The position numbers and the translations under genes were made by a program. DNA of 57,328 nucleotides, taken from Nanobdellota archaeon. GTDB taxonomy: Archaea > Nanobdellota > Nanobdellia > Pacearchaeales > GW2011-AR1. The notes beneath the pieces were generated by a model. It saw nothing but the letters and a program-made list of their open reading frames with translations, searched no databases and had not been told where the DNA came from. Within the stretch, counting starts at the first letter, position 1. The number at the start of each line of letters is the position of its first letter. Shown here piece by piece: positions 14,002 to 34,934 of this stretch. The stretch spans positions 1 to 57,328 of the forward strand of contig JBBSYL010000036.1 of the NCBI GenBank assembly GCA_038045265.1, in the 5' to 3' direction.

Positions 14002-15015
14002 TTAAAACAAAGTCTTCTGCGCACTCTGCTTCTTAACTTCTTTCAATGAAGCAAGCTGTTTTTCAACTCTTTCCATATTAAATTCATGCCTTTCAACAAG
14101 TATTTCCTTGATTTTCTTCTCATCGATTTTAGGGAATTCTATTTTAACTTTTTTTACATTGGGCTTCTTAAATATTTCAAAAACCTCTTTCCAATTGAAA
14201 TCCAATTTTCCCTGTTCTTCAAGTTCTGAAAATATCTTCACAGGATACTTCTTCTCCTTAACCAATGTCAATGCCTTTTTAGGGCCTATACCTCTTACAC
14301 CTTTAGGATTGAAATCAGTACCAACAAGAATTGCGAGAGAGATAAACTGATCCGAATCTACATCTAAAACATTAAGCAATTTCTCATATTCTATAATCTC
14401 AGGAGAAATATATATCTCCCCTGCTCTTGTCTTTCTCTTTCTTGCTAAAGTCAAATTCTGTATCAATCTATCTCCTCCAACTGCAAGCGCATCATAATCC
14501 TGAGAAGCAACCGCCCATGCCTCCCCGCTCTTTACAAGATCCGCACACTGCATTTCTCCCTCTCCAGGAGCCTGCACAACAGCAATTCCCATCGCCCCGA
14601 GTAACTCTTTACTTTCTTTTATCATTTCTTCATTTAATCTAATAAATCCTCTAGAATACTTATACATCGCATCCATATCTTCTTCTTCAACAGCCCTATC
14701 ATACTTCTCTTTCATTTCCTGTCTTGCATTATTTCTAATTTCATGCGTCTTTCCTTTCAACTCATGATATTCACCATCAAAAACATAAATTAATTTCGTC
14801 CCCTCTCTAAGCAGGGCAACATTTCTATAAAACAATCCAGACAAATGGCTAGTAATTCTCTTTTTAGAATCCATTAATGGTGTACCATCTGCTTGTCTTA
14901 TTGAAGATAAAAATTGGTAAATCGCATTAAACGCATCAACTGCAATCACCCTTCCTTTCAACTCTTCAATATTTAACTCTCTCCTAGGAACTATATCCCC
15001 TATTTGTAATCCCAT
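14002..15015 (-). CDS. fen: flap endonuclease 1
   Basis: MGLQIGDIVPRRELNIEELKGRVIAVDAFNAIYQFL..ITSHLSGLFYR, plus the GVRGIGPKKA H3TH motif. Confidence 0.95.
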   Translation of the reverse strand: MGLQIGDIVPRRELNIEELKGRVIAVDAFNAIYQFLSSIRQADGTPLMDSKKRITSHLSGLFYRNVALLREGTKLIYVFDGEYHELKGKTHEIRNNARQEMKEKYDRAVEEEDMDAMYKYSRGFIRLNEEMIKESKELLGAMGIAVVQAPGEGEMQCADLVKSGEAWAVASQDYDALAVGGDRLIQNLTLARKRKTRAGEIYISPEIIEYEKLLNVLDVDSDQFISLAILVGTDFNPKGVRGIGPKKALTLVKEKKYPVKIFSELEEQGKLDFNWKEVFEIFKKPNVKKVKIEFPKIDEKKIKEILVERHEFNMERVEKQLASLKEVKKQSAQKTLF

Positions 15016-15045
15016 CCATAAAAATAAAAAACCAAAGTTAAATAG

Positions 15046-15576
15046 TTATCTAACGCTTATAGCTTCTCTCATTTTAGCGAACATGCTTTTCGCCTCTCCC
15101 TGACTTAGTGGCTTTTCATTTCTCGCAGGTCTGCTATCAGAAATAACTGGCAAATTGGGTCCCTGATAAGGAGAATCAAGAATAATTTTGGCGTTATCCT
15201 TCCCATCCCCATATTCTGCAATATATCCAGATTCTCCTTTTCCAACACTTTCTCCTAAAAGGTCTTTAACGGCTCCCAATCTCCTAAATAATCCTCCTCT
15301 GAAATCAAATTCATCCCTATAGTCTAAACTTACAATGTCCTGCCATTCAGCCAGAACAAGATTTTCATCTAAAGTACCCTTATTTCCAACACATAGCCTA
15401 AAATTATATACTACTCTCTGTTCCGCCGCTCCCCTCGCCACATCAAAACAACCATTAACAAACAACGTATCTACCCTAGGTCTATAATGCCTATCATGCC
15501 ATTCTCTTCTTAATTCAGCAACAATAATTCTAGCAAAATCAGTAAGAGTTGTTCTTTCATAAGAATATTTTTTCAT
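15046..15576 (-). CDS. hypothetical protein
   Basis: A 176-aa ORF from the ATG at 15576. It is R/D/G-rich, unlike its neighbours, with no recognisable motif. Confidence 0.45.
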   Translation of the reverse strand: MKKYSYERTTLTDFARIIVAELRREWHDRHYRPRVDTLFVNGCFDVARGAAEQRVVYNFRLCVGNKGTLDENLVLAEWQDIVSLDYRDEFDFRGGLFRRLGAVKDLLGESVGKGESGYIAEYGDGKDNAKIILDSPYQGPNLPVISDSRPARNEKPLSQGEAKSMFAKMREAISVR

Positions 15577-15662
15577 ATTAATTATTACAAAAAACACTTT
15601 AAAAACCTTTCTATTTGTTACCACATTAAAGTAACATATTTACCACATAATTAAGACAGATA

Positions 15663-15673
15663 CCTTATAAAAC
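15663..15673 (+). promoter_or_regulatory. TATA-box-like promoter element upstream of polB
   Basis: ccttataaaac lies ~30 nt upstream of the ATG at 15694. Confidence 0.4.
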
Positions 15674-15693
15674 TTTCAATCCCTCAAAATTCC

Positions 15694-18018
15694 ATGAAAT
15701 CAATTAATGGCTTCATCACAGATATAGATTACTCTGCAGAAGAAGACGGAACAAAAGTTTATATCTATGGAAAGCTAGAAAATGGAGAAAGCTTTGTCTC
15801 AATCCATTCCTTAACGCCTTATTTTTTCATTAAAGAATCAGATTACAACAAAAACAAAAAATTATTTCAGAAATTCAATATAGAAAAAACAAAATTAACA
15901 AACTTCAAAGGAGAAAAAATCACGAAAGTTTCTCATAAGATCCATACTGAATTAAACAAATTGCATCATGTAATTCATAAAAAAATGGAGACTTATGAAG
16001 CAGATGTAAAACCTTCAAATAGATTCATAATAGATAATAATCTTTCAGGGAGTATAAGCATTTCAGGAGATTATCAATCATCAGAAAGAGTAAATAGAAT
16101 ATATGTTAATCAAACTATAAAACCTTCAAGCCAAAGAATAGATCTTAAAGTGGTTTCAATAGATACAGAATCAGACAAACAAGGAAATTTATACTGTATA
16201 GGCCTTTATTCCAGCAACTACAAAAAATGTTTTATTGTTTCAGATAAAAAACTTAACAATGCGACACCTTGCAAAACAGAAGAAGAATGCTTGGAAAAAT
16301 TTAGAGAAGAGTTAATAAAATTAGACCCAGATGTCTTAACGGGTTGGAATTTCATTGACTTTGATCTTGTCTTTCTTCAAGATCTATTCAAAAAACATAA
16401 AATAAAATTTGATATTGGCAGAAATAACGATAATTTAAGATTAAGAATTGAGGGCAATTTTTTCCGCTCATCATCTGCCTCAATTACAGGAAGACAAGTT
16501 TTAGATGGTTTAAATCTTATTAAAGATCCTTTCATTCAAGAGGCACCATTAATAAGAAATGCCAATTTCGAATCATATACATTAGAAGATGTTTCAAGAG
16601 CTATACTAAACAAAGGCAAACTGCTTGCAGGAAAAGAAAGGCATAAAGAGATAATTGAATTGTATAATAATAATCAACAAAAACTTGTCGATTACAATTT
16701 AATGGACTGTCAATTAGTTTATGAAATACTTGATAAAACCAAAATGATAGACCTCTTAACAGAACGCTCAGAACTTACTGGTCTAACATTTGATAGACTT
16801 GCAGGAAGTATCGCAGCATTCGATTCTCTCTACCTCAGAGAAGCAAGGTCTAGAAATTTAGTCTCTCCAACAACGGTATTCACGAAAACAGAAGAAAGAA
16901 TAATTGGAGGTTATGTTTATTCCTCAAATCCGGGAATATACAATAATGTTCTTGTATTTGACTTTAAGTCGCTATATCCAAGCATAATCAAAACTTTCAA
17001 TATAGATCCGGCGTCGCTTCTAGAAAAGCCTGAGAAAGACAGCATAGAATCGCCGAATAAAGCATATTTTAGAAACTCTCGAGGCATTCTTCCGGAAATA
17101 ATAGATAAATTGCACCAAGCAAGAGAAAAAGCAAAAAGGGAATCAAGAGATTTAGCAAATTATGCAATAAAAATAACAATGAACTCCTTCTTCGGAGTAT
17201 TAGCTAGCCCAAACTGCAGATATTATAATTTTAATATGGCAAATTCAATAACTCACTTCGCACAATTTATAATAAAGCTTACAGCAAAGGAGATAGAAAA
17301 GCTTGGCTACAAAATAATCTATCAAGACACAGATTCTTGCTTTGTTGAAACAAATCTTGAAAAAAACAAAAATCCCAAAATCTCTGTTGAAATACAAAAC
17401 CACATAAACGATTTTTACAAAAATTATATAAAAAAAGAATACGGAAGAGAATCTTTTCTAGAGCTTGAATTTAAGAAGCTATATTTAGCACTAATGATTC
17501 CAAAGGTAAGAGGAAAAGAAGAAGCTGCTAAAAAACGCTATGCAGGGTTAATTGAAAAAGAAGGAAAAGAAGAACTAGACATAGTAGGTCTAGAAGCAAT
17601 AAGGGGTGACTGGACGGAGGCGGCACAAGATTTCCAAAAAGAGCTTCTTCTAAAAACATTTCATCACGAATCTGTTGATAAATTCATAAAAGATTTCATA
17701 AAAAAAATAAAATCTGGCGAATTGGATAGAAAGTTAGTTTATAGAAAGTCAATAAGAAAAAATCTTGAAGAATATACTAAAACTACTCCTCCGCATGTAA
17801 AAGCCGCAAGAAAAATGATTAAACTTGAAGGGAATATTATTGAATATCTAATAACAGATGATGGTCCAGAACCTATTCAAAATCTTAAACATAAAATAGA
17901 TTACGAGCATTACATAAAAAAGCAAATCGAACCAATAGCAAATCAAATACTCATTCTTCTTGGGAAAGATCTTGGAGATAGCATGAAAAGCCAGAAGCAA
18001 GCAAGGCTATTTTTCTAA
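15694..18018 (+). CDS. polB: family B DNA polymerase
   Basis: Exo I VSIDTES, Pol A DFKSLYPSII, KITMNSFFG, and Pol C YQDTDS. Confidence 0.95.
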   Translation: MKSINGFITDIDYSAEEDGTKVYIYGKLENGESFVSIHSLTPYFFIKESDYNKNKKLFQKFNIEKTKLTNFKGEKITKVSHKIHTELNKLHHVIHKKMETYEADVKPSNRFIIDNNLSGSISISGDYQSSERVNRIYVNQTIKPSSQRIDLKVVSIDTESDKQGNLYCIGLYSSNYKKCFIVSDKKLNNATPCKTEEECLEKFREELIKLDPDVLTGWNFIDFDLVFLQDLFKKHKIKFDIGRNNDNLRLRIEGNFFRSSSASITGRQVLDGLNLIKDPFIQEAPLIRNANFESYTLEDVSRAILNKGKLLAGKERHKEIIELYNNNQQKLVDYNLMDCQLVYEILDKTKMIDLLTERSELTGLTFDRLAGSIAAFDSLYLREARSRNLVSPTTVFTKTEERIIGGYVYSSNPGIYNNVLVFDFKSLYPSIIKTFNIDPASLLEKPEKDSIESPNKAYFRNSRGILPEIIDKLHQAREKAKRESRDLANYAIKITMNSFFGVLASPNCRYYNFNMANSITHFAQFIIKLTAKEIEKLGYKIIYQDTDSCFVETNLEKNKNPKISVEIQNHINDFYKNYIKKEYGRESFLELEFKKLYLALMIPKVRGKEEAAKKRYAGLIEKEGKEELDIVGLEAIRGDWTEAAQDFQKELLLKTFHHESVDKFIKDFIKKIKSGELDRKLVYRKSIRKNLEEYTKTTPPHVKAARKMIKLEGNIIEYLITDDGPEPIQNLKHKIDYEHYIKKQIEPIANQILILLGKDLGDSMKSQKQARLFF

Positions 18019-25670: not shown

Positions 25671-25797
25671 TGATCCCGCCAAGAGTTGAACTTGGGACCT
25701 CTGCCTGTCTGAAATCATCTGATTTCTGAGCACACTCAAAAACCAGAGGTTTTTGATGTTATCAGAGCAGCGCTCTAACCAACTGAGCTACGGGATC
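25671..25797 (-). tRNA. tRNA-Ile(GAU) with a ~53-nt intron at the canonical 37/38 position
   Basis: Minus-strand fold: acceptor GATCCCG/CGGGATC, D arm GCTC/GAGC, anticodon stem CTGCT/GGCAG, loop CTGATAA, T arm CCAAG-TTCAACT-CTTGG, discriminator A, no encoded CCA. The mature length is 74 nt. Confidence 0.8.
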
Positions 25798-25851: not shown

Positions 25852-25922
25852 GCGCCGATGATCTAACGGTATGATTCGACCTTCCCAAGGTCGTTGCCCG
25901 GGTTCAACTCCCGGTCGGCGCA
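25852..25922 (+). tRNA. tRNA-Gly(CCC)
   Basis: Acceptor GCGCCGA/TCGGCGC, anticodon stem CGACC/GGTCG with loop TTCCCAA, and T arm CCGGG-TTCAACT-CCCGG. Confidence 0.9.
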
Positions 25923-26051
25923 TTTACTTTAGCAATTTGAATAATATAAGAAAGTGAATGGAACGAAGGCGCATTTACTTTAGCAATTTGAATAATATAA
26001 GAAAGTGAATGGAACGAAGGCGCATTTACTTTAGCAATTTGAATAATATAA
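25917..26051. repeat. 51-bp tandem direct repeat, 2.65 copies, first copy starting inside the tRNA-Gly 3' end
   Basis: The unit ggcgcatttactttagcaatttgaataatataagaaagtgaatggaacgaa is identical at 25917-25967 and 25968-26018. A third partial copy spans 26019-26051. Confidence 0.9.
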
Positions 26052-27515: not shown

Positions 27516-27603
27516 GGCCTCGTAGCTCAGCCTGGCTAGAGCACTGGACTCTTAAAATCTTGTAGAAATCCAGGTGTCGCGGGTTCAAATCCCGTCGGGG
27601 CCA
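27516..27603 (+). tRNA. tRNA-Lys(CUU) with a 13-nt intron; integration target (attL) of the DGR island
   Basis: Acceptor GGCCTCG/CGGGGCC, D arm GCTC/GAGC, anticodon stem CTGGA/TCCAG, loop CTCTTAA, T arm GCGGG-TTCAAAT-CCCGT, discriminator A. Confidence 0.85.
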
Positions 27604-27605
27604 TT
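27589..27605 (+). repeat. attL core (tRNA-Lys 3' end)
   Basis: 17/17 identity with 34598-34614. Confidence 0.8.
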
Positions 27606-27619
27606 GTTCAAAACCGCAC

Positions 27620-27630
27620 GCTTTAAATAG
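27620..27630 (+). promoter_or_regulatory. TATA-box-like promoter element upstream of integrase
   Basis: gctttaaatag lies ~30 nt upstream of the ATG at 27652. Confidence 0.4.
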
Positions 27631-27651
27631 TTCCAATTCGGGCAGGAAACT

Positions 27652-28818
27652 ATGAATGAAAAGATAGACATTCACTTTGAAGATGTGGGAAGAAGGAAAG
27701 AATCCATTAAAAAATGGAAAATGCCTTCAGAAGTAAAGAGAGATATGCTTCTTTTCCTTAATGATTTAGAATTAGGAAAGGTAAACAAGGGAAAGAAAAT
27801 AAATCCTAGAACTCAATTAAAATATATCAACACGTTAAAAGCTCCTCTTGAATACATAAACAAACCTCTTACTAAAATAACCCTTAAAGACTTAGAAGAG
27901 TTTGAAAAGGATTTATCTTCTGGTATATTGAAAAGCAAAAAGAAAAAGCCATATTCTCATGCCGTAAAGGCAGACATTAGAATTGCATTAAGAATACTAT
28001 TAAGATGGAAATTGGGGCTAGAAAAGGCAAATAAGCTTACTGATTGGTTTGATTGCAGAGATATTGACACAACACCAGACTATTTGAGTGAGAAAGAGAT
28101 AGAGAAGTTGTATAAGAGTTGTAAAAGCCTTAAAGAGAGATTTCTTATTGCTGTTCTATTTGACGCAGGTGTAAGAATTGAGGAATTTCTCAATATAAGA
28201 TACGAAGATGTTTCCTTACCTGTAAAAGAAGCTAATTTCGTTAAAATTACAATAAAGAATGAATATAGTAAGACATTAGGAAGAAATATATCTCTTTATT
28301 GGAAGCACTCATCAGAGGCAGTAAGAGACTTTATAGAACAAAGAGTTAGAGAAGGGATAAGAACAGACAATGCAGTCTATGAAGACACTTATTCTGCAAT
28401 TCGTTCATTCTTGAGAAGGTTTGGAATTAGAGTATTAAACAAGCCAGTGCATCCTCATTTATTTAGACATAGCTCTGCAACATATTATGCAAATAAACTC
28501 AATAGGCAAGAGCTATGCATGAGATATGGATGGAAGTTTAGCTCTGATATGCCTGACATCTATATTAGTAGAGCAGGAATGGAAAATAAAGAACTTGATG
28601 AGAAATTTACTCAAACTGAATTAGGAGATTTGAAATATAAACTTGAAAAGCAAGAACAACAAAATAATCTTATGAAAGAAAGACAAGAAAGACTTGAGGA
28701 AGAGTTGAATAGAAGAAGAAAATTTGACCCATTCTTAGACAAGCTAATGCAACAACAACCAGTAATACATCAAATAAAGAAGCTATTAGACAATGGAAAG
28801 AAATTAGTGATAGAATAA
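27652..28818 (+). CDS. int: tyrosine recombinase / integrase
   Basis: DAGVRIEEFLNIRYEDV (Arg I box), HPHLFRHSSATYYA (H-x-x-R) and DIYISRAG (candidate catalytic Tyr). It is intact and lies next to the att site. Confidence 0.9.
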   Translation: MNEKIDIHFEDVGRRKESIKKWKMPSEVKRDMLLFLNDLELGKVNKGKKINPRTQLKYINTLKAPLEYINKPLTKITLKDLEEFEKDLSSGILKSKKKKPYSHAVKADIRIALRILLRWKLGLEKANKLTDWFDCRDIDTTPDYLSEKEIEKLYKSCKSLKERFLIAVLFDAGVRIEEFLNIRYEDVSLPVKEANFVKITIKNEYSKTLGRNISLYWKHSSEAVRDFIEQRVREGIRTDNAVYEDTYSAIRSFLRRFGIRVLNKPVHPHLFRHSSATYYANKLNRQELCMRYGWKFSSDMPDIYISRAGMENKELDEKFTQTELGDLKYKLEKQEQQNNLMKERQERLEEELNRRRKFDPFLDKLMQQQPVIHQIKKLLDNGKKLVIE

Positions 28819-28844
28819 ACATAAAGTGGTGATTGGAGAACAAA

Positions 28845-29567
28845 ATGCCAATCAAACAAAAACAAAAGAAATCGAGCAACCGAAGCTCAATCCAGAGGAT
28901 GAGCTTTCGGGAAAGAATTGATTATGAAGAAGATAAAAAGAATAGATACTATAAAAGAACAGGAAAACAACAAAGAGTAAGAATAAATCTTGATTATGCC
29001 ATGGGATTTTTCAAAGCTAATGAATTAAATGTGCATGAAAAGGCATATTTGCTCAACAAAAAATATCAAATTATATATCGAACTGATTTAACAGGCAAGA
29101 AAAATTACTTCTTAGTGAAGCCGAGAGGAAATGAATCGGCAGAACATTTCCTTCTCGTAAAATTAATAGAAGAATATCTAAAACCTCATTTTAAAGTCTG
29201 GCTCTATCACTCTGTGAAGCCAGACGCGGAGATAAAATTCAAGAATAGAATGATTGCTATGGAAATTGAAACTGGAAAGCTTTTGAGGAACAATAAAAAA
29301 GAATTTCTTGAAAAAGTGGAGAGACTTAATGATAATTATGGGAAAGATTGGTTTTTCATTGTCACAAATAGAAATCTATTAAAGAAATATAGAAAATATG
29401 GTAAAACATACACAAGAAAGTCTGTATTGAAGAGATTAAATTATTACATAAATAATAAACCTAAAGAAAGTATAAGCATGAATTATGAAAACAAACCTAT
29501 AAAACGTGAAAATAAGCTTCCAGAAAGGAAAACTGGTGCTTATTGCTTTAATATTTGGGGAAAATAA
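28845..29567 (+). CDS. hypothetical basic protein of the island
   Basis: An ORF from the ATG at 28845, with a Lys/Arg-rich N-terminus. ..SAEHFLLV..KPDAEIKF..IAMEIETGK is loosely reminiscent of a PD-(D/E)xK nuclease core, but this is not secure. Confidence 0.45.
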   Translation: MPIKQKQKKSSNRSSIQRMSFRERIDYEEDKKNRYYKRTGKQQRVRINLDYAMGFFKANELNVHEKAYLLNKKYQIIYRTDLTGKKNYFLVKPRGNESAEHFLLVKLIEEYLKPHFKVWLYHSVKPDAEIKFKNRMIAMEIETGKLLRNNKKEFLEKVERLNDNYGKDWFFIVTNRNLLKKYRKYGKTYTRKSVLKRLNYYINNKPKESISMNYENKPIKRENKLPERKTGAYCFNIWGK

Positions 29568-29720
29568 GTATGCAAAAAACTAAGTTAGTATGTCAATTTT
29601 CACACAAAAAATCAACATACGAAATGCTCAATTTATTACACATAGATAAAAATCGTCTCCGACGATAGAATTTCCGATACGGTCAGCACAGGAATATAGA
29701 TATCTATTAAAATGTGTATT

Positions 29721-30768
29721 TTACACCTTTTCTAAAAGAGCATCAATTATCTTCATTTTAACTGCTTCCCTTAACTTATACGTCTTAGCCCATTTAGCAT
29801 AAGCCTGCCAACCTTGATAAACCTCCATTATAGATTCAAAACTCTTTTCGCCCTTTTTGTATAATTCTATTTTATTAATCATACTTCTTATATTTCTCTT
29901 TCTCAATAATCTACAATGGTAAAAATTCCTAAATCCAACAAAATCAATGCCTCTTTTTATTGGAATAATTCTTGACTTATTAGGATGTAATTCTATTTTT
30001 AACTTTTCTTTTAGAAAAGTATCTATTTTATCCTTCCATTCTTGAAGCTGTTTAGCAGACTTATGTAAAATTACAAAGTCATCAACATATCTTATGTAAT
30101 ACTTTGCTTTCAGGGTGTGCTTGACAAAATAATCCAGCTCATTCAAATATACATTAGCAAAGAATTGAGAGGTATAGTTGCCTAAAGGCATTCCTTTTGC
30201 TCGTTCGCCCCCCCCCCCCGAACGAGCTTACTGTATTATTCAATATTTGTCTGATAAGCCAAATCACGTCATTATCTTTAATCTTCTTACTTAGAATATT
30301 TATTAAAATTTCATGGTCAACGCTAGGAAAATAGTGTCTTACATCTGCCTTAAGGCAAAAACCACTTTCAGTATAAGGATTTGAAACTTTTCTTATAAAC
30401 CTATCAAATCTCTTAAGTGCAAACAATGTTCCTTTTTTTATTTGATTTGCACATGAATCATATATAAACTGCTTTTCAAAGAACTTCTTTATGACATTAA
30501 TTATAGCATGATGAACTACTCTATCTCTGAAATCAGATTTGCTTATCACTCTTGTTTTTGGGTCTCTCAAAACAAAGGTTTCCAAAGGCAAGGGCTTGTA
30601 TGTTTTATAAGTTAGTTCTCTATGCAGATTTAATAAATTAAGCTCTAAATTTTTCTCAAATTCCATAACGTCTTCATTTGAAGTTTTACCTTCTCTTGCT
30701 TTTCTCCAAGCAAGAGTTAAGTTTCCCATTGAAGATAGCCAATAATAAAGACCATTGTAAGTTTTCAT
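29721..30768 (-). CDS. DGR reverse transcriptase, reading frame interrupted by a G12 tract (one G fewer gives an intact 348-aa protein)
   Basis: The start MKTYNGLYYWLSSMGNLTLAWRKAREGK.., DPKTRVISKSDFRDRVVHHAI, the DGR-type motif 4 GMPLGNYTSQFFANVYL (xGxxxSQ), and YIRYVDDFVIL (YxDD). The two ORF-track pieces (30154-30873 and 29721-30191) join at the homopolymer. The total of 1048 nt equals 3n+1. Confidence 0.9.
30199..30227 (-). repeat. homopolymer G12 (sense strand; C12 on + at 30208-30219) flanked by a perfect 8-9 bp inverted repeat inside the RT gene
   Basis: The sense strand reads GCTCGTTC-G12-CGAACGAGC. This is the frameshift site of the RT. Confidence 0.9.
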
Positions 30769-30797
30769 ATTATAATTCCTAGTATGCACGTACTGGG

Positions 30798-30881
30798 CTA
30801 TTCGACCGTTCTCGTTAGAGTTAGCAAGATTGTCATTATTGGCATTCAAGTTGAGGTTACTATTGAGGTACAACCTCGAAA
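30798..30881 (-). repeat. DGR template repeat (TR), 84 bp
   Basis: It is homologous to 32150-32233 and 31269-31352. It has 28 A on the sense strand, mostly in AAY codons. It lies 29 nt upstream of the RT start and is not coding; the ORF-track TTG-start extension of the RT ORF covers it. Confidence 0.9.
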
Positions 30882-31242
30882 GGTATAGCCTTCTGCTTTA
30901 CGTACTCACATTCACATCTGTAAATTTCATCTCATTATTGCAGATGTAAATGCTCGTCACCACCACTTCATATTTCATTTTTCAATTACTTAATGTCGCA
31001 GTTGAATTTTATAATCTTCTCTTACGAGAAGACCCTAAGCACAAGGCGTGTAGCCCAGCCATGATTTGTGCATGACTAGGACTGTTAAAAGAAAATAATG
31101 CTTTTTATTTAATTAGATTATAGAATATGCAATAATCAAACAATATAGATAAAAAAATAGATTATATTATCAATTTGATTTTAAAGTTCGCATTTTATAA
31201 TTTTTCATTTTTAATTATTATGTACCAAAAAATTTGACGCAA

Positions 31243-31257
31243 AGTGGCTTCGGCACT
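31243..31257 (-). promoter_or_regulatory. GC-rich hairpin 11 nt downstream of VR2 (sense AGTGCCGAAGCCACT, one C-C mismatch)
   Basis: It is near-identical to the hairpin downstream of VR1 and absent downstream of the TR. Confidence 0.55.
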
Positions 31258-32001
31258 TTAGAAGAGAACTACCCGACCGTCCTCGACAGAGTAAGCAAGA
31301 CCGACATTATCGGCATACAAGTCGAGGCTACTACTGAGGCACAACCTCGAAAGTCCAAGATTATCTTCATTAGCTTCTCCCTGCGATGCAGTCCATAATG
31401 TTCTTGTTCCTTGTCCGAGCTTAGAAGGCAAACCAGTTTCTAATGAAACATCTTCATTTCTAAATACTCCTGTTGGTTTAGCAAGAATTGGAGAATGTCT
31501 TACTTGAGTATTTGGATTATAAACTAATCCTAAACCATAACTTCCTTTATCAAAATTCTTTAAACCATATTTGACAAGAACTGCTGGAAGCTTTTTAACA
31601 TCTCTTAATTGAGCAGGTAATTGTCCAAACATATCCATAGCCATTTCATGATGTCTTCCTGAAAAGTCTAATACAACTCCTAAATCAACATAATGATTTC
31701 CTCGTATTCCTATTGTATCTCCATCATTAAGAGTTCTTTGAATATCTTCTGGAAGTCCAACTCTTCTTTCTGGAACTAATGATTGAACTACTGGTAAAAC
31801 TAAAGAATTTGAACCTCTGACTGTAGGAACTTTATTAACTTCTGCTAAGTTTAAAACTTTAAGATTGGGATTATCAGCATAATCTCTTTTAACCAAGGCA
31901 TTAAAATCTTCTACAAATCTTGGAGCATTATCTCCTTGAAGAGTGTAAGGTATTACAAATGGCTGTTTTACTGCTGGCTTAAAATCATATTTATCTGTCA
32001 T
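31258..32001 (-). CDS. DGR target protein 2 (VR at extreme C-terminus)
   Basis: A paralog of the upstream gene. The C-terminus ..LSRLCLSSSLDLYADNVGLAYSVEDGRVVLF is encoded by VR2. It starts 2 nt after the stop of target 1. Confidence 0.85.
   Translation of the reverse strand: MTDKYDFKPAVKQPFVIPYTLQGDNAPRFVEDFNALVKRDYADNPNLKVLNLAEVNKVPTVRGSNSLVLPVVQSLVPERRVGLPEDIQRTLNDGDTIGIRGNHYVDLGVVLDFSGRHHEMAMDMFGQLPAQLRDVKKLPAVLVKYGLKNFDKGSYGLGLVYNPNTQVRHSPILAKPTGVFRNEDVSLETGLPSKLGQGTRTLWTASQGEANEDNLGLSRLCLSSSLDLYADNVGLAYSVEDGRVVLF
31269..31352 (-). repeat. DGR variable repeat VR2
   Basis: There are 15 differences from the TR over 84 bp, all at TR adenines on the sense strand. Confidence 0.9.
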
Positions 32002-32003
32002 AA

Positions 32004-32888
32004 TTATTTCCCTCTCCCTGTAGGCATATTAACCATAGATTGTGTAAACCATTTATCGAGTTCGCTTTTTCTTGCTTCTACTTGTTCTCTTAATTGAGCT
32101 TGATATTGTCTAATAAAATCGGCGCCAGTGGCTTCGCCACTAACCAAAACTACCCGACCGTCCTCGTTAGAGTTAGCAAGATTGTCATCATTGGCACTCA
32201 AGTTGAGGTCACTAACGAGGTACAACCCCGAAATTCCATTATCTCTTGCAAAAAATTGTCTTTTTCCATTTTTATCAAATTTAGGTAATCCTAATTCATC
32301 AACATCTGTAAACTGTTTTTCATTATTCTTTCCAGAAAGTCTTTCATCCTGTGCAACTGCAAAATCAGGTCTTGCTACAACCTTTAATCCATATCCTGCT
32401 CTGTCTTCTTCAGAAGGCACGACATCAAATCCTTGCACCATGAATGGATATTTTATACTTCCAGCCTTACTTTCTGCTAATTCAGTAACTTGTTTTAATA
32501 TTCCTCTATTCTGTTCTCTATTGTCTTTGTTACTTTGAACAACAAATGCAGGAGTATCAGAATAATGATTATCTTTAACCATAGAAAGAACTTGAGGGTT
32601 GCTTAAATCAGCCAATGTAACAACACGCATATTGAAAGGTCTTACCATATTATCCAAACGAGATGCTGAAAATGTATTTGAACCAGTCATATATGCAGGA
32701 TTATCTTTTCCAGCTTGAACCAGTGTGAGAACATTAAGGTATTGATTATCTCCAAATCTTTCTTTAATATCTCTTCTAAATGCTTCATACAATGCAGGAG
32801 CAAATTTATCTCCTTCTGCGAATGCTGTTAAAATAGTTGGCACTCTCCAATTAGGTTGCCCAAGATTTAGTTTACTTTCTTTAGCCAT
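32004..32888 (-). CDS. DGR target protein 1 (internal VR followed by ~47-aa tail)
   Basis: ..GISGLYLVSDLNLSANDDNLANSNEDGRVVLVSG.. is encoded by VR1. There is no signal peptide or TM helix. Confidence 0.85.
   Translation of the reverse strand: MAKESKLNLGQPNWRVPTILTAFAEGDKFAPALYEAFRRDIKERFGDNQYLNVLTLVQAGKDNPAYMTGSNTFSASRLDNMVRPFNMRVVTLADLSNPQVLSMVKDNHYSDTPAFVVQSNKDNREQNRGILKQVTELAESKAGSIKYPFMVQGFDVVPSEEDRAGYGLKVVARPDFAVAQDERLSGKNNEKQFTDVDELGLPKFDKNGKRQFFARDNGISGLYLVSDLNLSANDDNLANSNEDGRVVLVSGEATGADFIRQYQAQLREQVEARKSELDKWFTQSMVNMPTGRGK
32127..32141 (-). promoter_or_regulatory. GC-rich hairpin 8 nt downstream of VR1 (sense AGTGGC-GAA-GCCACT, 6-bp stem)
   Basis: A perfect inverted repeat just 3' of the IMH-like end of VR1. 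It lies within the coding sequence of target 1. Confidence 0.6.
32150..32233 (-). repeat. DGR variable repeat VR1
   Basis: There are 9 differences from the TR over 84 bp, all at TR adenines on the sense strand. Confidence 0.9.
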
Positions 32889-32907
32889 GCCCTTTCTTAT
32901 TTTAGAC

Positions 32908-32919
32908 TATTTATAAACC
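32908..32919 (-). promoter_or_regulatory. TATA-box-like promoter element of the DGR target operon
   Basis: The minus-strand gGTTTATAAATAg starts 30 nt upstream of the ATG at 32888. Confidence 0.45.
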
Positions 32920-33217
32920 TTTCTATTATGTTACTACTTCAAAGTTAATTATGTAATATGGGACGAATATTCTTTATTGATATAAAAGAAAGAAAAGTTT
33001 GTAAATGTAAGTAAGAATATTATGCTATTTTGTACTAAAACTTACAGAATCTGTATAGAATGATACAAAATAGCTAAGTTTACAGATTACTGAAAGACGA
33101 TTATGTCATTCAAACCATAATATTATGGTATAAACACTATAATGAAAAGTGTCACAAATAATGTATCACTTTAGAAAGGTTTAATTCTGTTATAGTGTGC
33201 TTTGCTGATGCACAACA

Positions 33218-33261
33218 TCTTCTATCCTCAATAGAAGATAGTTTCTATTGTCAATAGAAAC
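33218..33261. promoter_or_regulatory. two adjacent 8-bp-arm palindromes (candidate operators) abutting the ATPase promoter
   Basis: TCTTCTAT-cctca-ATAGAAGA (33218-33238) and GTTTCTAT-tgtca-ATAGAAAC (33241-33261), directly followed by cctttaaatat. Confidence 0.5.
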
Positions 33262-33282
33262 CTTTAAATATATGTTTTATAT

Positions 33283-34503
33283 ATGATTAGCATGGTAGAA
33301 GAAGAAATAATAAAAGAAGTTATAACTTCACAGAGAGAATTATTGAATAAATCAGAAACTGGAACTCCGAGAGAGGCAGAAAAAGAGATTAGTATATTAG
33401 ATTCGTTTGCCCTAATAATAACTGGCGTGAGACGATGTGGCAAGAGTACATTTTTAAATCAGCTAATAAAAAAGCAGAAAAAAGCTTATTATCTTAATTT
33501 TGAAGACCCTCGACTAGAAGGATTTGAATTAGCAGATTTTAATAAAACTGAAATAATTTTTAAAAAGCTTTTTGGAGAAGGAGGAGTTTATTTTTTTGAT
33601 GAAATACAAAATATAGCTAAATGGGAAAAATTCATAAGGTACTTGGTTGATAAAAAGGAGAAAGTAGTTATAAGTGGCTCAAATGCCTCTATTTTGAGCA
33701 GAGAACTAGGGACAAAACTTACGGGAAGACATCTTAGAGCAGAAATGTTTCCTTTTTCCTTCAAGGAGTTTTTAGACTTAGAAAATGCCGAACCATCAAT
33801 AAATAGCTTTGATAAATATTGCCAGAAGGGAGGATTCCCAGAATATCTAAAGAAAGACAATCCAACGATATTAAATGAATTATTATCTGATATTGTAATG
33901 AAGGATATTGCAATAAGATTTGGAATAAAAAATACCAAAATATTAAATAAAATAGCAATCTTCCTCATAGGTAGCTCTGGAAAAGAGTTTTCTTATAATT
34001 CAATAAAGAATATGCTAAACATTAAATCTGTACAAAGTGTAATAAACTATATATCATTTTTTGAAGATGCCTATCTTATCTTTACTATTCCTCTCTTTAA
34101 CTATTCATACAAAAAACAGCAAGTAAATCCTAAAAAAGTTTACTCGATAGATACGGGCTTTTCTGTCTACAATACTCCCTCCTTTTCAGAAGATAAGGGG
34201 AGAATTCTAGAGAACGTTGTATTCCTTGCCTTGAGGAGAAAACATAAAGATATATTTTATTTTAAAGAAAAAAATGAATGTGACTTTTTAATAAAGGAAA
34301 GGGAAAAAATTATTCAAGCTATCCAAGTCTGCTATAATTTTAATAATGACAATAAGGAAAGAGAAATTAATGGGTTGATGGAAGCAATGAAGAAGTTTAA
34401 ATTGAAAGAAGGTTTAATTCTAACGTATAATCAAACTGATGAGTTTAATGTAGAAGGATATAAAATTAAAGCTATTCCTGTCTGGAAATGGCTTCTCTTA
34501 TGA
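33283..34503 (+). CDS. AAA-family ATPase (DUF4143-type archaeal ATPase)
   Basis: Walker A GVRRCGKST and Walker B VYFFDEIQ, with a C-terminal region like the DUF4143 family. The alternative start at 33292 fits the 30-nt TATA spacing better. Confidence 0.75.
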   Translation: MISMVEEEIIKEVITSQRELLNKSETGTPREAEKEISILDSFALIITGVRRCGKSTFLNQLIKKQKKAYYLNFEDPRLEGFELADFNKTEIIFKKLFGEGGVYFFDEIQNIAKWEKFIRYLVDKKEKVVISGSNASILSRELGTKLTGRHLRAEMFPFSFKEFLDLENAEPSINSFDKYCQKGGFPEYLKKDNPTILNELLSDIVMKDIAIRFGIKNTKILNKIAIFLIGSSGKEFSYNSIKNMLNIKSVQSVINYISFFEDAYLIFTIPLFNYSYKKQQVNPKKVYSIDTGFSVYNTPSFSEDKGRILENVVFLALRRKHKDIFYFKEKNECDFLIKEREKIIQAIQVCYNFNNDNKEREINGLMEAMKKFKLKEGLILTYNQTDEFNVEGYKIKAIPVWKWLLL

Positions 34504-34597
34504 ACGAAAGATTATTATACTAATGTGTATTAGAAATAATACGAAGAGGATTAGTGCCTTTATTCAAGATAAAGACAAGTGATGCGGTTCTGACTAC

Positions 34598-34614
34598 ATC
34601 CCGTCGGGGCCATT
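34598..34614 (+). repeat. attR core (copy of tRNA-Lys 3' end)
   Basis: 17/17 identity with 27589-27605. Confidence 0.8.
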
Positions 34615-34934
34615 TTAAACTCCGCAGCGAATCTCCGAGCCTGTTGAGGAGAGTTGAGCAAGAGAGTTTAAAATTATTTCTCGAGTTTAAAATTAATCCT
34701 TAAATTAAATCATATTATTGCAAATAACAACTAACTAGTATCTCTAAGTTCTTCAGGTCTAACCATTCTAGTTTCAAGCAAATATTCATCAGAATATGTC
34801 TCTCTCAATCGAGCAACATTATACTCTCTCACAGCTTCTTTAATCAAATTAGTAGGTCTAACTTCCCATTCAAAAGAATCTAGTTGTTCTTGTAATGTAG
34901 ACATAAAAACAACAGAAAAAAGAAGTATAAATAT

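Follow-up and report, generated by a model that had tools for sequence, protein, structure and literature searches.

A probable cryptic integrated element carrying a diversity-generating retroelement in the tRNA-Lys(CUU) gene of a DPANN archaeon

The stretch of DNA analysed here, a 57,328-nt contig of a Nanobdellota archaeon (hereafter the window), contains a block of about 7 kb (27606-34597) in which a tyrosine integrase, a hypothetical protein, a diversity-generating retroelement (DGR) and an ATPase follow one another downstream of a tRNA-Lys(CUU) gene; the genes flanking it include those for Cdc48, TFS, an archaeal-type signal peptidase and TopA. The tRNA gene lies at 27516-27603 on the plus strand (Rfam RF00005, 56.4 bits; Lys ctt i(41,13) in ARAGORN with introns) and has a 13-nt intron 3′ of the anticodon loop. 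ARAGORN's default call at this position, 'tRNA-Stop (tta)', is an artefact of that intron and becomes tRNA-Lys (ctt) once introns are allowed. Together with the flanking genes, the intron identifies the host as an archaeon of low GC content (about 33%); the nearest related genome bears the label Candidatus Woesearchaeota. The last 15 nt of the tRNA together with 2 flanking nt make up a 17-mer, ATCCCGTCGGGGCCATT, which occurs at 27589-27605 and again, identical at 17 of 17 positions, at 34598-34614, in both cases on the plus strand; we refer to the two copies as the attL and attR cores. A first-pass annotation of this DNA had proposed from the repeat that the block is an integrative element, and had added that occurrence of the 17-mer at many unrelated sites would speak against insertion. 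The window holds exactly two copies and no further one at up to 2 mismatches, and chance matches in 100 shuffles numbered 0 (0 expected).

The integrase gene (27652-28818, plus strand) begins 47 nt downstream of the tRNA-side copy of the 17-mer and encodes a full-length protein of 388 aa (PF00589, 1.3e-12; phrog_1 integrase, 1.9e-19). All invariant columns of a 32-member family alignment are kept, namely R175, K202/K207, H269, R272, W294 and Y304, which bears out the annotation's description of the gene as intact. Judged by its sequence, the enzyme is a classical (non-suicidal) tyrosine recombinase with the catalytic set R-K-H-x-x-R-[H/W]-Y. Assignment to either of two other integrase types was rejected. 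Integrases of the SSV or 'suicidal' type have attP within an integrase gene that integration splits, and carry the motif R...KxxR...Y (PMC8371274); here the gene is whole, lies outside the repeat and has an HxxR motif. Those of the pNOB8 type carry R...YxxR...Y (PMC8371274), and the present family has no YxxR and an invariant H269-L-F-R272. A TATA-box-like element, TTTAAATA (27622-27629, plus strand), is found 22 nt upstream of the integrase ATG; conservation of its TTTA-A-A columns extends over five related left ends, and it is a putative promoter of a leaderless integrase mRNA.

The closest solved structures are XerA proteins (E 4e-9), the profile alignment to XerA 5hxy extends through the HxxR motif, and relatives appear in some public records as 'XerA' or 'XerD'. 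It could be argued on these grounds that there is no element at all, and that a housekeeping XerA-type enzyme merely lies beside a tRNA gene whose 17-mer recurs by chance or duplication. Identity as an archaeal XerA was rejected, however, since the score is 74.3 bits with the NCBIfam model XerA_Arch (NF040815), whose cut-off is 220, and the lack of any expected chance occurrence of the repeat also stands against this explanation. The ends of the block, a related genome and the wider integrase family, described in the next three paragraphs, bear on it as well.

When the two ends of the island are joined, they read GTGA-TGCGGTTCTGA-CTAC-ATCCCGTCGGGGCCATT-GT-TCAAAACCGCA. The left-end arm TCAAAACCGCA (27608-27618, plus strand) and the right-end arm TGCGGTTCTGA (34583-34593, plus strand) form an inverted repeat of 11 nt, complementary at 10 of 11 positions and placed nearly symmetrically about the core, from which its two halves are 4 nt and 2 nt away; it was equalled in 0 of 200 shuffles. 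Because these complementary ends lie 7 kb apart and are symmetric about the repeat, they look like the attP of a tyrosine recombinase, and the arms are putative core-type binding sites for the integrase. The predicted junction sequences are GTCGCGGGTTCAAATCCCGTCGGGGCCATTTTAAACTCCGCAGCGAATC for attB and GTGATGCGGTTCTGACTACATCCCGTCGGGGCCATTGTTCAAAACCGCACGC for attP. Inverted repeats of 9-14 nt surround the attP core in all nine of the repeat-bounded elements, the window's included. The stretch from the tRNA to the integrase ATG is conserved across five elements as CAAxACCG...TTTAxAxA, spanning the left arm and the TATA-like box, and the CAAxACCG block is shared by the left ends of L008, L012, L018 and L019 (L-numbers denote the Logan, metagenome and metagenome-assembled genome [MAG] contigs that were compared with the window).

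The annotation had pointed to related genomes with a tRNA-Lys locus lacking the insert as a check, and such a locus is present in a distant relative. A Woesearchaeota MAG contig (L007) is collinear with the window on both sides of tRNA-Lys(CUU), with Cdc48 (71%), a 132-aa gene, a 208-aa gene, signal peptidase, TFS and a homologue of a 123-aa protein to the left, and a wHTH (winged helix-turn-helix) gene (87%), a 186-aa gene, a metallophosphoesterase and TopA to the right; identity over these 10 flanking proteins is 39-87%. The gap from the tRNA to the wHTH gene measures only about 700 nt and holds two small open reading frames (ORFs), and the locus lacks the integrase, the DGR and the ATPase as well as any repeat of the tRNA end. 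The tRNA-Lys of L007 has no intron, and its 3′ half is identical to the 3′ exon of the window's gene.

The integrase has more than 900 homologues (50-77% identity), every one of which comes from a metagenome or a MAG; those few with a name are assigned to Nanoarchaeia, 'archaeon' or Woesearchaeota. In about 40 of 80 metagenomic loci a same-strand tRNA gene ends 45-220 nt upstream of the integrase, and the tRNAs concerned (Lys, Thr, Tyr, Asp, Ser, Asn and Glu) often have introns. Nine loci, corresponding to eight distinct elements, have a 12-16-nt repeat of the tRNA 3′ end located 5.8-11 kb downstream, in a search that is meaningful only where enough sequence follows the integrase. The same search directed at upstream DNA gave 0 matches, and a control with tRNA 5′ ends returned nothing but AT-rich chance matches. 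The sole gene common to all repeat-bounded elements is the integrase. Cargo in the relatives includes restriction-modification systems of the Eco57I/MmeI type, DUF2779, GmrSD/HNH and FokI-like domains, and DGRs. The two closest integrases occupy the same site, following TFS and an intron-containing tRNA-Lys, and are accompanied by different cargo: in L008 (integrase 77% identical) a 65% homologue of the window's 244-aa hypothetical protein, an RT-16 RNA and an oppositely oriented reverse transcriptase (RT; 50%), and in L012 (70%) DUF3800 and haloacid dehalogenase (HAD)-type genes. L018 (integrase 66%) harbors a tRNA-Lys element of 7.0 kb that is bounded by a 14-nt repeat and has a DGR inside. 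At a tRNA-Thr gene, L024 (integrase 58%) has the same order as the window, with integrase, ORF, RT-16, two ORFs and ATPase (45%), but without an RT and without a detectable repeat; because both are missing, it looks like a decayed version of a window-type element.

Three independent lines of evidence, the empty site, the attP structure and the behavior of the family, support the view that the island is a discrete insertion, as the annotation had it. They also bear on the alternative in which no element exists: relatives adjoin tRNAs of many kinds and have matching repeats and inverted-repeat arms, and the whole block is absent from the syntenic L007 locus. We give that alternative practically no credence and consider it refuted, as far as the data allow. 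The interpretation we favor, with a probability of roughly 85%, is that 27606-34597 is a small cryptic integrated element that was put into the 3′ end of tRNA-Lys(CUU) by its own classical tyrosine integrase.

We propose that the element existed as a circle whose attP would have carried ATCCCGTCGGGGCCATT as its core. Strand exchange within the 17-bp identity between attP and attB, which coincides with the 3′ end of the target tRNA gene, would then have linearised the element into the chromosome, with a crossover position that we infer to lie inside this identity. After integration, attL would hold a restored, intact tRNA and attR the tRNA tail that had been displaced, and the integrase gene, staying whole at its short distance from the tRNA, would probably be driven by the TATA box in the left arm of the element. 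The cargo consists of a PD-(D/E)xK-like protein, a complete DGR (RT, RT-16 RNA, template repeat and two targets) and an ATPase of the PDC-S01 type.

Several observations weigh against this interpretation. The compositional contrast between island and flanks that the annotation had put forward as a check did not materialize: GC content is 31.7% in the island and 33.1% in the host, tetranucleotide usage falls within the host range, and 22% of host windows are at least as far from the host mean as the island is, so that the composition test is uninformative on insertion. A search for excision junctions among Logan contigs with flanking or island proteins, which covered assembled contigs, gave no attB or attP junction; L005 crosses attR and L001 crosses the left arm, both unbroken. 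The integrases found at the same site in relatives (70-77%) are about as diverged as host proteins (50-87%), and the RT copy in the window is frameshifted. The genome with the empty site, L007, is a different species in which the 123-aa neighbor gene is just 39% identical, and a scan of the genome collection with that gene returned this one relative and no empty site from the same genus. Finally, no gene for replication, packaging or transfer and no excisionase candidate was found in the element. One further feature of the assemblies was not counted as evidence. L001 and L002 start at 27576, which corresponds to a k-mer branch at 27605/27606, right after ...GGCCATT; the branch fits attB or the tRNA-Lys of another genome, and sharing of k-mers among tRNA-Lys genes accounts for the contig ends at 27576 and 27596.

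Part of this list is equally at home in a history in which site-specific integration took place long ago and the island is now fixed and vertically inherited, its integrase retained or domesticated and its cargo exchanged by other routes. Composition indistinguishable from the host, the lack of junction variants in the assemblies, the absence of transfer or replication genes and the seemingly decayed state of L024 all fit such a history, as does a related integrase at the same tRNA-Lys locus; since its divergence is like that of host proteins, long vertical residence with cargo turnover is possible. Against it, attR is still a perfect repeat and the attP arms still match at 10 of 11 positions, neither of which is needed by the host, the integrase keeps every catalytic residue, the site is empty in L007, and the cargo differs wholly between elements at the same site. 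We regard the fixed, vertically inherited island as possible, if on the unlikely side. The exact attR, the preserved attP arms, the intact integrase and purifying selection on the cargo (see below) favor a functional integrated element, and from these sequence features we infer that the element may be mobile at present and capable of horizontal transfer.

Whether the element might depend on a helper was considered in light of its gene content. As the annotation had noted, capsid, portal and terminase genes are absent, PHROGs matches being confined to the integrase and the RT, and scans of Pfam, PHROGs, NCBIfam and PADLOC detected no viral, conjugative or transposon hallmark gene within the coverage of these libraries. 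A satellite, a defective provirus or a reduced integrative plasmid, for which a helper supplies replication, packaging and transfer, would resemble what we see in its size of 7 kb and in its layout, with the integrase next to att and few cargo genes. Some members of the family encode large proteins with weak MCM or AAA-lid/HTH matches that are possible replication proteins, and the libraries used have poor coverage of archaeal virus proteins. These points are set against the absence of any structural match in PHROGs and of a Rep candidate in the element, the lack of integrase relatives among the 2.9 million contigs of IMG/VR, and matches of 28% or lower, none of them close, in phage and plasmid collections. 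A helper-dependent origin is in our judgment quite improbable, and we retain the reading of a cryptic element integrated by its own enzyme.

The order of genes inside the element is as the annotation described it (integrase, basic hypothetical protein, DGR with RT, template repeat [TR] and two targets, ATPase), with the correction that the RT is broken in the window. The RT region (29721-30768, minus strand) comprises two ORFs, 30154-30873 and 29721-30191, each with a PF00078 match; a +1 frameshift within the G12 run at 30208-30219 (C on the plus strand) separates them. In L001 and L096, two other assemblies of the same population, the run is G11 and the RT is intact (348/335 aa) and belongs to the DGR clade (phrog_1423, 2e-119). 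The TR (30798-30881, minus strand; repeat family D1) is 84 nt long and contains 28 adenines. Immediately 5′ of it on the coding strand lies an RT-16 RNA motif (30880-31080, minus strand; Rfam RF03019, 84.7 bits with a gathering score of 50), which also adjoins the RTs of L008 and, twice, L018. Matches between the TR and variable repeats (VRs) identify two target genes on the minus strand, target gene 1 at 32004-32888 (294 aa; VR1 at 32150-32233) and target gene 2 at 31258-32001 (247 aa; VR2 at 31269-31352). The positions at which TR and VR differ are TR adenines in every case, 9 of 9 in VR1 and 15 of 15 in VR2 (24 of 24 in total), and the DGR is genuine. The space between target and RT is filled by the RT-16 motif; no small profile-matching ORF that might encode an Avd-like accessory protein turned up there, and no dedicated search for one was made.

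Thousands of homologues of the RT exist, the top ones being named Nanoarchaeota or Woesearchaeota. Its closest relatives (72-73%) are found in loci that have no integrase, L097 (4537-11008) and L098 (4461-11002), which indicates that the DGR cassette changed its genomic context in the course of its history. These two loci share an operon of an AAA_5 ATPase, a 299-aa ORF, an ORF of about 595 aa, one of about 50 aa and one of about 300 aa, followed by the RT, and represent a different DGR architecture in related archaea. In L018 the 14-nt attR is directly followed, on its outer side, by a second complete DGR cassette (14634-17681) that lacks its own integrase; it consists of an intact RT (70% identical to that of the window), an RT-16 RNA and two targets. 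The arrangement suggests that elements inserted in tandem or in succession and that the older one then lost its integrase.

The run that is frameshifted in the window encodes GGGG just before a GMPLGN motif of the RT. Homologous poly-G tracts occur at 2633-2643 in L001, 10431-10441 and 15121-15133 in L018, and 3271-3283 in L019, as well as in L096. The tract reads G11 in cassette A of L018, whose RT is split, G8-A-G4 in cassette B, whose RT is intact, and G13 in L019, and 2-6 glycines stand here in many RT homologues. In a genome of 33% GC such a tract looks like a slippage-prone ON/OFF switch, or could be an assembly error at a homopolymer, and it may be the most unusual feature of the locus. 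A more far-reaching interpretation would combine the tract with the family data: the element would be active and would belong to a DPANN-specific family, very large and undescribed, of minimal integrase elements that shuttle DGRs and defense genes between ultrasmall archaea by way of tRNA genes, with an RT made phase-variable by slippage of 11-13-nt poly-G. Taken as a whole, we think this interpretation unlikely.

The remaining cargo lies on either side of the DGR. Directly after the integrase is an ORF of 244 aa (28833-29567, plus strand; the public call is 222 aa from 28899) with no match in Pfam, NCBIfam or PADLOC. Only three close homologues were found, and homologues stand beside the integrase in L008-11, L016, L018, L019, L021, L022 and L040. 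Conserved residues are E82-H83, P108-D109, E122-x-E124 and K127. An AlphaFold model of modest confidence (mean pLDDT 62.5) gave EndoMS/NucS, Bax1, Can2 and Hjc as its best, if weak, Foldseek matches (E from 4e-3, probability 0.91-0.95), and on these grounds the protein is tentatively a probable two-domain, PD-(D/E)xK nuclease-like protein. At the far end of the element is an ATPase of the AAA_14 + DUF4143 type (33283-34503, plus strand; PF13173, 2.8e-37; PF13635, 2.7e-21), which matches PADLOC PDC-S01 (PDLC04787) over its full length (3.6e-110, residues 29-405 of 406). By this match it is a member of a candidate defense family, with a candidate role in defense; homologues occur in the tRNA-Thr elements L024 (45%) and L040 (71%).

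No record gives the exact product of the ATPase ORF; public versions differ in the start call and by 5 synonymous single-nucleotide polymorphisms (SNPs). Over 21 kb the window differs from the NCBI MAG contig CAYHYW010000004.1 only in poly-G length and in five clustered transitions at 33429-33474, all of which are synonymous, fall at third codon positions and surround the ATPase's Walker A motif; at the TR-adenine positions of VR1 and VR2 the two consensus assemblies do not differ. Because these five synonymous changes are the sole SNPs over that distance, the cargo appears to be under purifying selection. Logan contigs also break in or beside the ATPase gene (33248, 34233), and the pattern suggests that recombination between strains, or gene conversion, affected this gene alone.

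DPANN archaea and bacteria of the candidate phyla radiation (CPR) carry DGRs unusually often, and we know of no documentation of how they spread among these reduced genomes. The locus described here is a precisely bounded DGR vehicle with a predicted attP and attB, which makes DGR transfer in DPANN archaea testable. More broadly, one integrase family with hundreds of members brings DGRs, restriction systems and candidate defense genes into many tRNA genes, and could provide a site-specific integration tool for organisms without genetics. Islands in tRNA genes with tyrosine integrases, archaeal cryptic integrated elements, DGRs on islands and DGRs in DPANN archaea are all known already. Elements of this kind being well known, the advance is incremental; the new points are an element of a DPANN archaeon that carries a DGR and has precise bounds, and a large family of DPANN integrases, now recognized, whose att architecture is consistent and of which we found no description in the searchable literature.

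The window's element is a cryptic integrated element in the usage established for Thaumarchaeota by Krupovic et al. (2019; PMC6563490). Like the thaumarchaeal elements, it is small (theirs start from 2.6 kb) and bounded by direct repeats, and it sits in a tRNA gene, as most of theirs do, intron-containing tRNA genes included. In both, a tyrosine integrase is the only conserved gene, the cargo is variable and often of defense type, and viral and conjugative hallmarks are lacking. The window's element differs in its host lineage, which is DPANN/Woesearchaeota-like, and in an integrase from another clade (the nearest relative in the PDB being XerA). Reverse transcriptases have 0 occurrences in the thaumarchaeal survey (PMC6563490), and DPANN archaea are not mentioned in a 2021 review of archaeal tyrosine recombinases (PMC8371274). 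With classical archaeal integrases such as that of SNJ2 (PMC8371274), the window's enzyme shares an integrase gene that stays intact after integration, a tRNA restored at attL, an identity block confined to the tRNA 3′ end and a short attB at the acceptor end. Sequence kinship to it is not close (28% or lower to integrases of the pleolipovirus type), and SNJ2 is a virus, whereas the window's element has no virion genes.

Among DGR-bearing islands, the one in Legionella pneumophila Corby, in the account of it available to us (PMC5758913), likewise has a DGR as cargo, its own integrase and a distribution limited to some strains. It is bacterial, much larger and equipped with conjugation-related functions, and its excision has been shown experimentally (Lautner et al. 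2013, as cited in PMC5758913); the window's element is archaeal, 7 kb long and devoid of transfer genes, and its excision is predicted. With the chromosomal DGRs reported for DPANN archaea and CPR bacteria in groundwater surveys, to the extent that these are summarized in PMC5758913, the present DGR shares the RT clade, the adenine signature and small target genes with the variable region at or near the C-terminus. It differs from DPANN DGRs in that the cassettes of the window, L008 and L018 are inside an integrase-bounded element, whereas the closest RTs stand beside an AAA_5 operon.

Several smaller features at and near the borders of the element deserve mention. To the right of attR, a segment of about 84 nt (34608-34691) is 81% identical to positions 35-117 of an unrelated contig, L055, in which a tRNA-Tyr-type integrase lies 2 kb from the matching segment. 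The segment also resembles the right flank of the L018 attR (TCCGCAGYGAA), and the Logan contig L006 breaks exactly at 34692. No match to it was found in Rfam at E≤1 or in IMG/VR, and an 11-mer match to L074 looks like chance. Because its start, TTAAACTCCGCA, resembles the element's own left arm, the segment may be the B′ half-site of attB or a left-end remnant of an older, decayed element. To the left of the element, a perfect 51-nt tandem repeat (25917-26051; 2.6 copies, 100% identity) begins in the last 6 nt of a tRNA-Gly(CCC) gene (25852-25922) and stops just before the signal-peptidase ORF; it could be a duplicated tRNA tail plus flank, and so a scar of recombination at another tRNA. A third tRNA gene, at 25671-25797 on the minus strand, was detected by Rfam only (56.8 bits) and is missed by ARAGORN at its default settings; its length of 127 nt implies a long intron, and long introns of up to about 150 nt are also found in many of the tRNAs that stand beside integrases of the family.

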